A stretch of DNA of 64,000 nt, taken from NCBI RefSeq assembly GCF_044324785.1, contig NZ_CP172127.1; one strand, written 5' to 3'. The notes under the pieces are model-generated. The model ran no database searches. It was not told the origin of the DNA and saw only the letters and a list, made by a program, of their open reading frames with translations. Below are positions 59,626-59,949 of this stretch, one piece after another. This DNA is from Escherichia coli. GTDB lineage: Bacteria > Pseudomonadota > Gammaproteobacteria > Enterobacterales > Enterobacteriaceae. A program made the position numbers and the translations under genes. Each line of letters starts with the position of its first letter. Position 1 is the first letter of the stretch.

Positions 59626-59799
59626 AGTTAAATCTCCAGTTTTTGACAAGGGCACGAAGTCTACTCGCAACGCGACGGCGAGACAAATTTTACGCAGGAA
59701 TCAAACAAGGGTGGGTAGTGACTAAAAAAAGCACGATCTGATGGTTTAGTAATTAAATTAATCATCTTCAGTGATAATTTAGCCCTCTTGCGCACTAAA

Positions 59800-59850
59800 A
59801 AAATCGATCTCGTCAAATTTCAGACTTATCCATCAGACTATACTGTTGTA
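59800..59850 (+). promoter_or_regulatory. frdA promoter with FNR site
   Basis: atcgatctcgtcaaat (TTGAT-N4-ATCAA-like, ~59803-59818) centred ~29 bp upstream of a tatact -10 hexamer (59839-59844); anaerobic FNR activation of frd is established. Confidence 0.65.
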
Positions 59851-59949
59851 CCTATAAAGGAGCAGTGGAATAGCGTTCGCAGACCGTAACTTTCAGGCAC
59901 TTACCCTGAAGTACGGGGCTGTGGGATAAAAACAATCTGGAGGAATGTC

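Follow-up and report, generated by a model that had tools for sequence, protein, structure and literature searches.

The FNR box of the Escherichia coli frdABCD promoter: a weak motif marked by its spacing to the -10 element and by its conservation in Enterobacterales

According to the Busby & Ebright model, a class II activator bound near -41.5 replaces the -35 contact. NarL also acts on several of the canonical class II FNR promoters, as it does on frdA, and phospho-DcuR would activate frdA from upstream. The promoter frdAp of the E. coli K-12 operon frdABCD was reportedly described by Jones & Gunsalus in 1985 and 1987. In Myers 2013, frdABCD was assigned to category 1, direct FNR activation, and a rise in sigma-70 occupancy was reported for the directly FNR-activated promoter class (PMC3688515). 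The FNR ChIP peak at frdA/poxA is robust and was detected by all four peak callers and by an earlier ChIP-chip study, and the FNR site of frdA was placed at -45.5 and counted in class II (-41.5 +/- 4) (PMC3688515). In the expression excerpt of that source, the RNA ratios of frdA-D are ~0.09-0.11; taken as fnr-mutant/wild-type, they correspond to about 10-fold FNR dependence. The same paper presents the frdA box as an example of a weak match (PatSer ln(p) -5.15, among the weakest ChIP peaks), states that FNR occupancy is unexplained by site strength, and refers to an unpublished thesis for FNR binding in vitro (PMC3688515).

The window analysed here is a stretch of 64,000 nucleotides of an E. 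coli chromosome (contig NZ_CP172127.1), and the features described below are on its + strand unless stated otherwise. The frdA gene starts with GTG at 59950, and the region upstream of it is divergent to epmA, whose start codon is located at 59623-59625 on the - strand (annotated ATG at 59625). The Shine-Dalgarno sequence GGAGG and the frdA GTG (59939-59952) lie in the segment GGAGGAATGTCGTG, which is invariant in 25 genera. The epmA-frdA intergenic region is 59626-59949. In the initial annotation the left boundary was drawn at 59671, which must be corrected; it is 45 nt short because a longer TTG-initiated epmA ORF was used. The longest epmA ORF starts from TTG at 59670, whereas the annotated K-12 start is ATG 59625 (MSETASWQ...). 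A 326-bp intergenic region was found in 5,425 of 5,426 complete E. coli genomes, and identity over the 77-bp core (59790-59866) reaches 99% or more in 5,180 E. coli genomes. Compared with K-12 MG1655, the intergenic region has five substitutions, three near 59709-59716 and two in the leader. No difference from MG1655 is present between 59720 and 59897, and thus the core promoter is base-for-base that of MG1655. In the search of E. coli genomes, three copies of the intergenic region were located on plasmids, and in strain E423, H12, the match is split between two distinct locations, suggesting an insertion near window position 59745.

The FNR box atcgatctcgtcaaat (59803-59818) was proposed in the initial annotation from its half-sites, and it is documented by sequence, literature, ChIP and conservation. 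It is the published FNR site of frdABCD and is already known; the 14-mer quoted as the frdA FNR site in Myers 2013 is TCGATctcgTCAAA, at 59804-59817 (PMC3688515). Two registers can be aligned with the consensus TTGAT-N4-ATCAA. Register A, the one chosen in the initial annotation, is TCGAT-ctcg-TCAAA (59804-59817, centre 59810.5) with 4 mismatches in 10 positions. Register B, which puts GTCAA into the ATCAA slot, is ATCGA-tctc-GTCAA (59803-59816, centre 59809.5) with 5 mismatches in 10. The good halves are the promoter-distal TCGAT (59804-59808) and the promoter-proximal GTCAA, which together with its A-TTT flank occupies 59812-59820. They are spaced by 3 bp, whereas the canonical spacing is 4 bp, and the distance from the G of the distal half to the C of the proximal half is 8 nt instead of the canonical 9. 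Therefore, canonical reading of both half-sites by a symmetric FNR dimer is impossible.

When up to 2 or up to 3 mismatches were allowed, motif searches of the window with TTGAT-N4-ATCAA did not return the frdA box, and so the box cannot be validated by motif strength. An equal or better match to the consensus is found in 1,530 of the 63,987 14-mers of the window (2.4%), and the consensus resemblance of the box, alone, is at chance level. As for the half-site resemblance proposed initially, the proximal half (G/A)TCAA is canonical, and the motif as a whole, with its 4-5 mismatches in 10, does not rise above chance. Two better matches within this intergenic region, at 59758 and 59819 (3 mismatches each), were rejected, as they are unconserved. 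In the whole window, 45 matches with up to 2 mismatches were counted against a dinucleotide-shuffle expectation of 31.2, and 340 with up to 3 mismatches against 238; none of 100 shuffles reached either number. AT-rich islands or codon usage may be the sources of this excess. Examples of the matches are located at 18062-18075, 18248-18261 and 36237-36250, and three sites in the window have a single mismatch (TTGATTAAAATTAA, GTGATTTATATCAA and TTGATTCTCTTCAA).

The -10 hexamer TATACT, in the context gaCTATACT, is located at 59839-59844. The initial annotation had put the centre of the site ~29 bp upstream of this hexamer; the measured distance from the centre to the first base is 28.5 bp in register A and 29.5 bp in register B, and the coordinates were given correctly. 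At the position where a -35 element would be expected with a 17-bp spacer, the sequence AATTTC (59816-59821) has 0 of 6 matches to TTGACA. As the -35 place is taken by the FNR box, the promoter depends on an activator, and the absence of a sigma-70 two-hexamer promoter from 59500-60100 in the promoter scan is expected for an activator-dependent promoter.

For comparison, the spacing between the best FNR 14-mer and the candidate -10 hexamers was measured in ten K-12 promoters. The centre-to-(-10) distance is 29.5 bp in dmsA, narG and fnrS, and 28.5 bp in narK, ynfE and nirB. In ydhY it is 29.5 bp when the second-ranked -10 candidate is used. The promoters of nrfA, fdnG and ydfZ were left out of the calibration, as they had no clean -10 candidate or the wrong site was possibly picked. 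In the case of fnrS, the annotated RNA 5' end puts the centre at -42.5, in agreement with Myers 2013 (PMC3688515). The frdA spacing is indistinguishable from that of the control class II FNR promoters. This control-like spacing, with no -35 element, indicates that the architecture is that of a class II, activator-dependent promoter. If the proximal half defines the register (register B), the centre lies 29.5 bp before the -10 element, which is exactly -41.5 when the hexamer is numbered -12 to -7. In the -10 context (59837-59844) there is also a C at -13, which is unconserved among the genera (41%). A C at -13 and the hexamer TATACT are typical of sigma-S-preferred promoters. In a Salmonella RNA-seq study, a putative sigma-38 -10 promoter is attributed to frdA in a gene list that has no coordinates (PMC4422608).

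The conservation of the box was analysed in the frdA loci of 80 Enterobacterales species (81 sequences, by genome scan) and in an alignment of 25 genera. In the 25 genera, AAAA.AATCGA.C...TCAA.TTTC and TATA[C/A]T are invariant with zero indels between them, and outside them the Shine-Dalgarno/start region and TACCYATAAAGGAGCAG are conserved in a region that is otherwise divergent. TCAA is located exactly 22 nt before TATA[A/C/G]T in each of the 81 sequences, whereas the distance from the -10 element to the start codon varies from 54 to 292 nt. As TCAA and TATA.T were the anchors of the ungapped alignment, their 100% conservation is by construction, and the shared spacing is the result. The mean majority frequency is 0.91 for the A-tract plus the distal half, 0.93 for the proximal half plus TTT and 0.96 for the -10 hexamer, compared with 0.47 further upstream of the box, 0.63 in the spacer between the box and the -10 element and 0.54 after the -10 element.

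Within the box, the TTT flank of the proximal half is 98-100% conserved in the 81 sequences. The proximal half is a perfect ATCAA in about 43% of the species, and GTCAA in E. coli. On the distal side, TCGA is 91-99% conserved, and the non-consensus C is carried by 99% of the 81 sequences. Most other genera have TCGAA, and hence the TCGAT of E. coli is the derived state. The Dickeya box is TGGAT-cac-ATCAA. In Providencia and Edwardsiella the distal half is absent, and the proximal half and its flank are retained at an unchanged distance from the -10 element. These results indicate that the proximal half is the universally conserved determinant. Judged from the aligned sequences, the distal TCGA(T/A) is kept in the Enterobacteriaceae and Yersiniaceae at a place 1 bp too near the proximal half. 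Upstream of the box, the A7 tract (59797-59803) has A in 96-100% of the 81 sequences at positions -54 to -51; it represents the AAA that flanks the box in the extended FNR consensus, and is possibly a contact zone of alpha-CTD. The composite pattern RTCAA-N22-TATAMT, which was picked post hoc, has a single occurrence in the window, where 0.08 would be expected. This rarity, the invariant block and spacing in 81 of 81 sequences and the published FNR ChIP peaks together show that the box is more than a chance match.

We conclude, with a probability of about 0.93, that this sequence serves as the FNR box in the E. coli promoter of frdABCD, which is known to be an activator-dependent sigma-70 promoter. 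According to the mechanism proposed here, dimeric [4Fe-4S]-FNR would bind the frdA box without oxygen. The box takes the place of the missing -35 element, its centre being 28.5-29.5 bp upstream of TATACT, and FNR bound there would recruit and activate RNA polymerase by the class II mechanism. By analogy with the class II model, the activating regions of FNR would touch sigma region 4 and the alpha subunits. In the presence of nitrate, phospho-NarL on the 7-2-7 pair over the start point shuts the promoter. The anaerobic induction of frdABCD by FNR, which had been proposed from the sequence, agrees with the published category 1 activation, the ChIP peak and, as far as the expression excerpt goes, the ratios of ~0.1 (PMC3688515).

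The position of the box relative to the transcription start has to be considered separately. The start zone is 59850-59856, in which 59850-59852 is inferred from the -10 element and 59856 comes from the published numbering. When the centre 59810.5 is set to -45.5, +1 is 59856; when the NarL heptamer centres 59852 and 59861 are set to -4 and +6, +1 is again 59856. This position corresponds to MG1655 position 4,382,412. It is 12 nt past the end of TATACT, the sole plausible -10 element. At sigma-70 promoters the distance from the -10 element to the start is about 6-9 nt, and so the true start is most likely 59850-59852 (MG1655 4,382,416-4,382,418, minus strand of NC_000913.3); base 59850 is A preceded by T. 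A start at 59850-59852 would place the FNR site at -40.5 to -41.5, and we consider this canonical geometry probable. The 1980s nuclease-protection mapping was, we infer, 4-5 nt too far downstream, possibly by fraying of an AT-rich end.

If the published geometry is taken literally, +1 is 59856 and the activator works from -45.5, which is not optimal for class II and is perhaps a built-in way of limiting promoter strength. Both numberings, FNR at -45.5 and NarL at -4/+6, lead back to this base (PMC3688515, PMC4549865), which is an A after T, a favourable start dinucleotide. However, both probably derive from one 1980s nuclease-protection mapping, and the surrounding ACCTATAAAGG is AT-rich, which would favour over-trimming. 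Furthermore, the start would be 12 nt after a phylogenetically invariant -10 element, the hexamer serving it would be TGTTGT, and the box-to-(-10) distance equals that of the canonical -41.5/-42.5 promoters. We therefore regard the literal geometry as unlikely, about one chance in four being left to it in our judgement. As -10 elements for a start at 59856, TGTTGT (without A at position 2), TTGTAC and TACCTA were rejected on sequence. TATAAA (59853-59858) was likewise rejected, since most genera have CATAAA or CACAAA there, and with it FNR would lie near -55. The supplements of Kim 2012, Ettwiller 2016, Cho 2014 and Yan 2018, in the portions covered, list neither frdA nor a coordinate that matches, and frdA is unmentioned in Federowicz 2014. 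The site near -41.5 of the initial annotation is reasonable, since the spacing to the invariant -10 element equals that of dmsA, narG, narK, nirB, fnrS and ynfE, and it is possibly more accurate than the published -45.5. The spacing to the -10 element thus fits class II, whereas the literature start gives -45.5, which is 4 bp off the optimum of class II and within the class II range of +/- 4.

The out-of-register distal half allows another reading, in which the conserved block as a whole, or else its distal part AAAAAAATCGA, would be bound by a different protein, such as DcuR, a nucleoid protein or the alpha-CTD of polymerase, and FNR reads the proximal half alone. The distal half is 1 bp out of register and yet highly conserved, with C in 99% of the sequences, and Providencia and Edwardsiella retain the proximal half alone. 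The flanks tell against this reading, as the A-tract and TTT fit the extended FNR consensus, which is said to go back to Eiglmeier 1989; also, no competing motif was identified. In Myers 2013, site strength fails to explain FNR occupancy, which would suit an additional protein, but ChIP places FNR itself at the locus (PMC3688515). Such a separate target seems to us improbable, somewhat more so than the literal start at 59856. The conserved TCGA may represent a weak asymmetric site that is selected, an overlapping target of another protein, or a tolerance of FNR for this spacing.

A chance resemblance to the FNR consensus, with anaerobic control of frdABCD exerted from elsewhere, is very improbable: 2.4% of the window 14-mers are equally good and better ones are present at 59758 and 59819, but a ChIP peak covers the region, neither the block nor its spacing varies in 80 species, and this reading is effectively refuted by conservation together with the published ChIP and expression data. 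The idea that the box regulates the divergent epmA instead of, or besides, frdA has an equally slight chance; the two genes have the region in common and Myers 2013 labels the peak frdA/poxA, but the epmA ATG is about 185 bp downstream of the box, whose orientation and spacing relate to the frdA -10 element, and in the excerpt of the differential-expression list b4154 is followed by b4175, so that epmA (b4155) is absent from that part of the list (PMC3688515).

NarL-phosphate represses frdA via several sites, including a high-affinity 7-2-7 site at -4/+6 (PMC4549865). In the window this is the site TACCTAT-aa-AGGAGCA (59849-59864), which overlaps the start point. It consists of a perfect TACCTAT at 59849-55 and an inverted partner with 1 mismatch at 59858-64. 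Its segment TACCYATAAAGGAGCAG is conserved in 25 genera. A single NarL heptamer TACYYMT occurs at chance frequency, 27 times in the window against 27.6 expected. Two overlapping NarL-like heptamers with 1 mismatch each, GACTTAT and TATCCAT, are located between the box and the -10 element (59823-59833); they are poorly conserved in the 81 sequences and are regarded as putative.

Further elements were observed upstream of the box. The AT-rich block GTAATTAAATTAATCATCTTCAGTGATAATTTA (59741-59782) contains the inverted repeat ATCA-N7-TGAT at 59761-59775, with its centre near -83, and in many genera this repeat is found at the same interval from the FNR box. The sequence TGATAATTTA and the DcuR footprint of LEE1, TTATCTCACATAATTTAT, have the 8-mer ATAATTTA in common (PMC10636207). 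On this similarity, the block 59741-59782 is a candidate for the site at which DcuR, the fumarate-response regulator, would act on frdA. In Providencia, Yersinia and Edwardsiella, the more distant genera, a conserved GATCAC(A/G)TTTT is found upstream of the FNR half-site, about 95-100 bp before the -10 element. It resembles a CRP half-site (TCACA), and TTTCGTGAC occupies a comparable position in many Enterobacteriaceae. The element may be a CRP site; E. coli is without it.

The frdA leader contains a hairpin at 59875-59926, in which the basal helix is formed by 59875-59882 and 59919-59926. In the alignment of 25 genera, 88.6% of the cells of the basal helix are paired, compared with 35-50% when the helix is slid, and 21 cells are changed on both sides, a number reached by none of 500 shuffles. 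E. coli has the pair TTCGCAG/CTGTGGG, whereas TTTCGCA/TGCGAAA is found in most genera; Salmonella and Citrobacter have TTCAT/ATGAA, and Pluralibacter has TTTCTC/GAGGAAA. The apical part varies, being shorter in Klebsiella and Raoultella and missing from Pseudescherichia. The fold of the E. coli leader alone is without significance (z = -0.48), and 59400-60200 had no Rfam match at E <= 1. The compensatory changes indicate that the frdA leader carries a covarying hairpin helix. It could be an undescribed post-transcriptional control element.

Taken jointly, the observations would be accommodated by a selected, sub-optimal and asymmetric FNR box, whose proximal half is canonical and placed precisely for class II and whose distal half, with its non-consensus C, is kept 1 bp out of register by selection in the Enterobacteriaceae and Yersiniaceae, together with a position of -45.5 that results from placing the start ~5 nt too far downstream, and a leader hairpin that acts as a post-transcriptional control element. 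We propose this combination tentatively, and consider it more doubtful than probable. If it is true, the sub-optimal box would serve to adjust either the oxygen threshold or the rank that fumarate respiration has in the respiratory hierarchy. The overall significance is small, as the interpretation is supported and the feature was already known. A real but weak regulatory site can be recognized from geometry by a reader without tools, and the frdA FNR box is identified by its spacing to the -10 element and phylogenetic invariance, not by motif strength alone. For the specialist the value is modest, and consists of a likely 4-5 nt error in the database start site of frdAp, the conserved half-site arrangement that is one bp short, and the covarying helix of the frdA leader.

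Compared with the FNR site of K-12 frdAp, the locus is the same, and the promoter is identical from upstream of the box past the NarL site. The class II CRP promoters, for example galP1, would be alike in mechanism by analogy, as a dimeric activator of the CRP/FNR family is located near -41.5. They differ in the protein and in the half-site, which is TGTGA instead of TTGAT, and there is no TGTGA in the frdA box. Canonical class II FNR sites have 0-2 mismatches, whereas the frdA box has 4-5 and one good half-site, its second half being displaced by 1 bp; the PatSer ln(p) values are -10 to -16.5 for the canonical sites and -5.15 for frdA (PMC3688515). In architecture, frdA is like narG, narK, nirB, dmsA, fnrS and ynfE, with a centre-to-(-10) distance of 28.5-29.5 bp and no usable -35 element.
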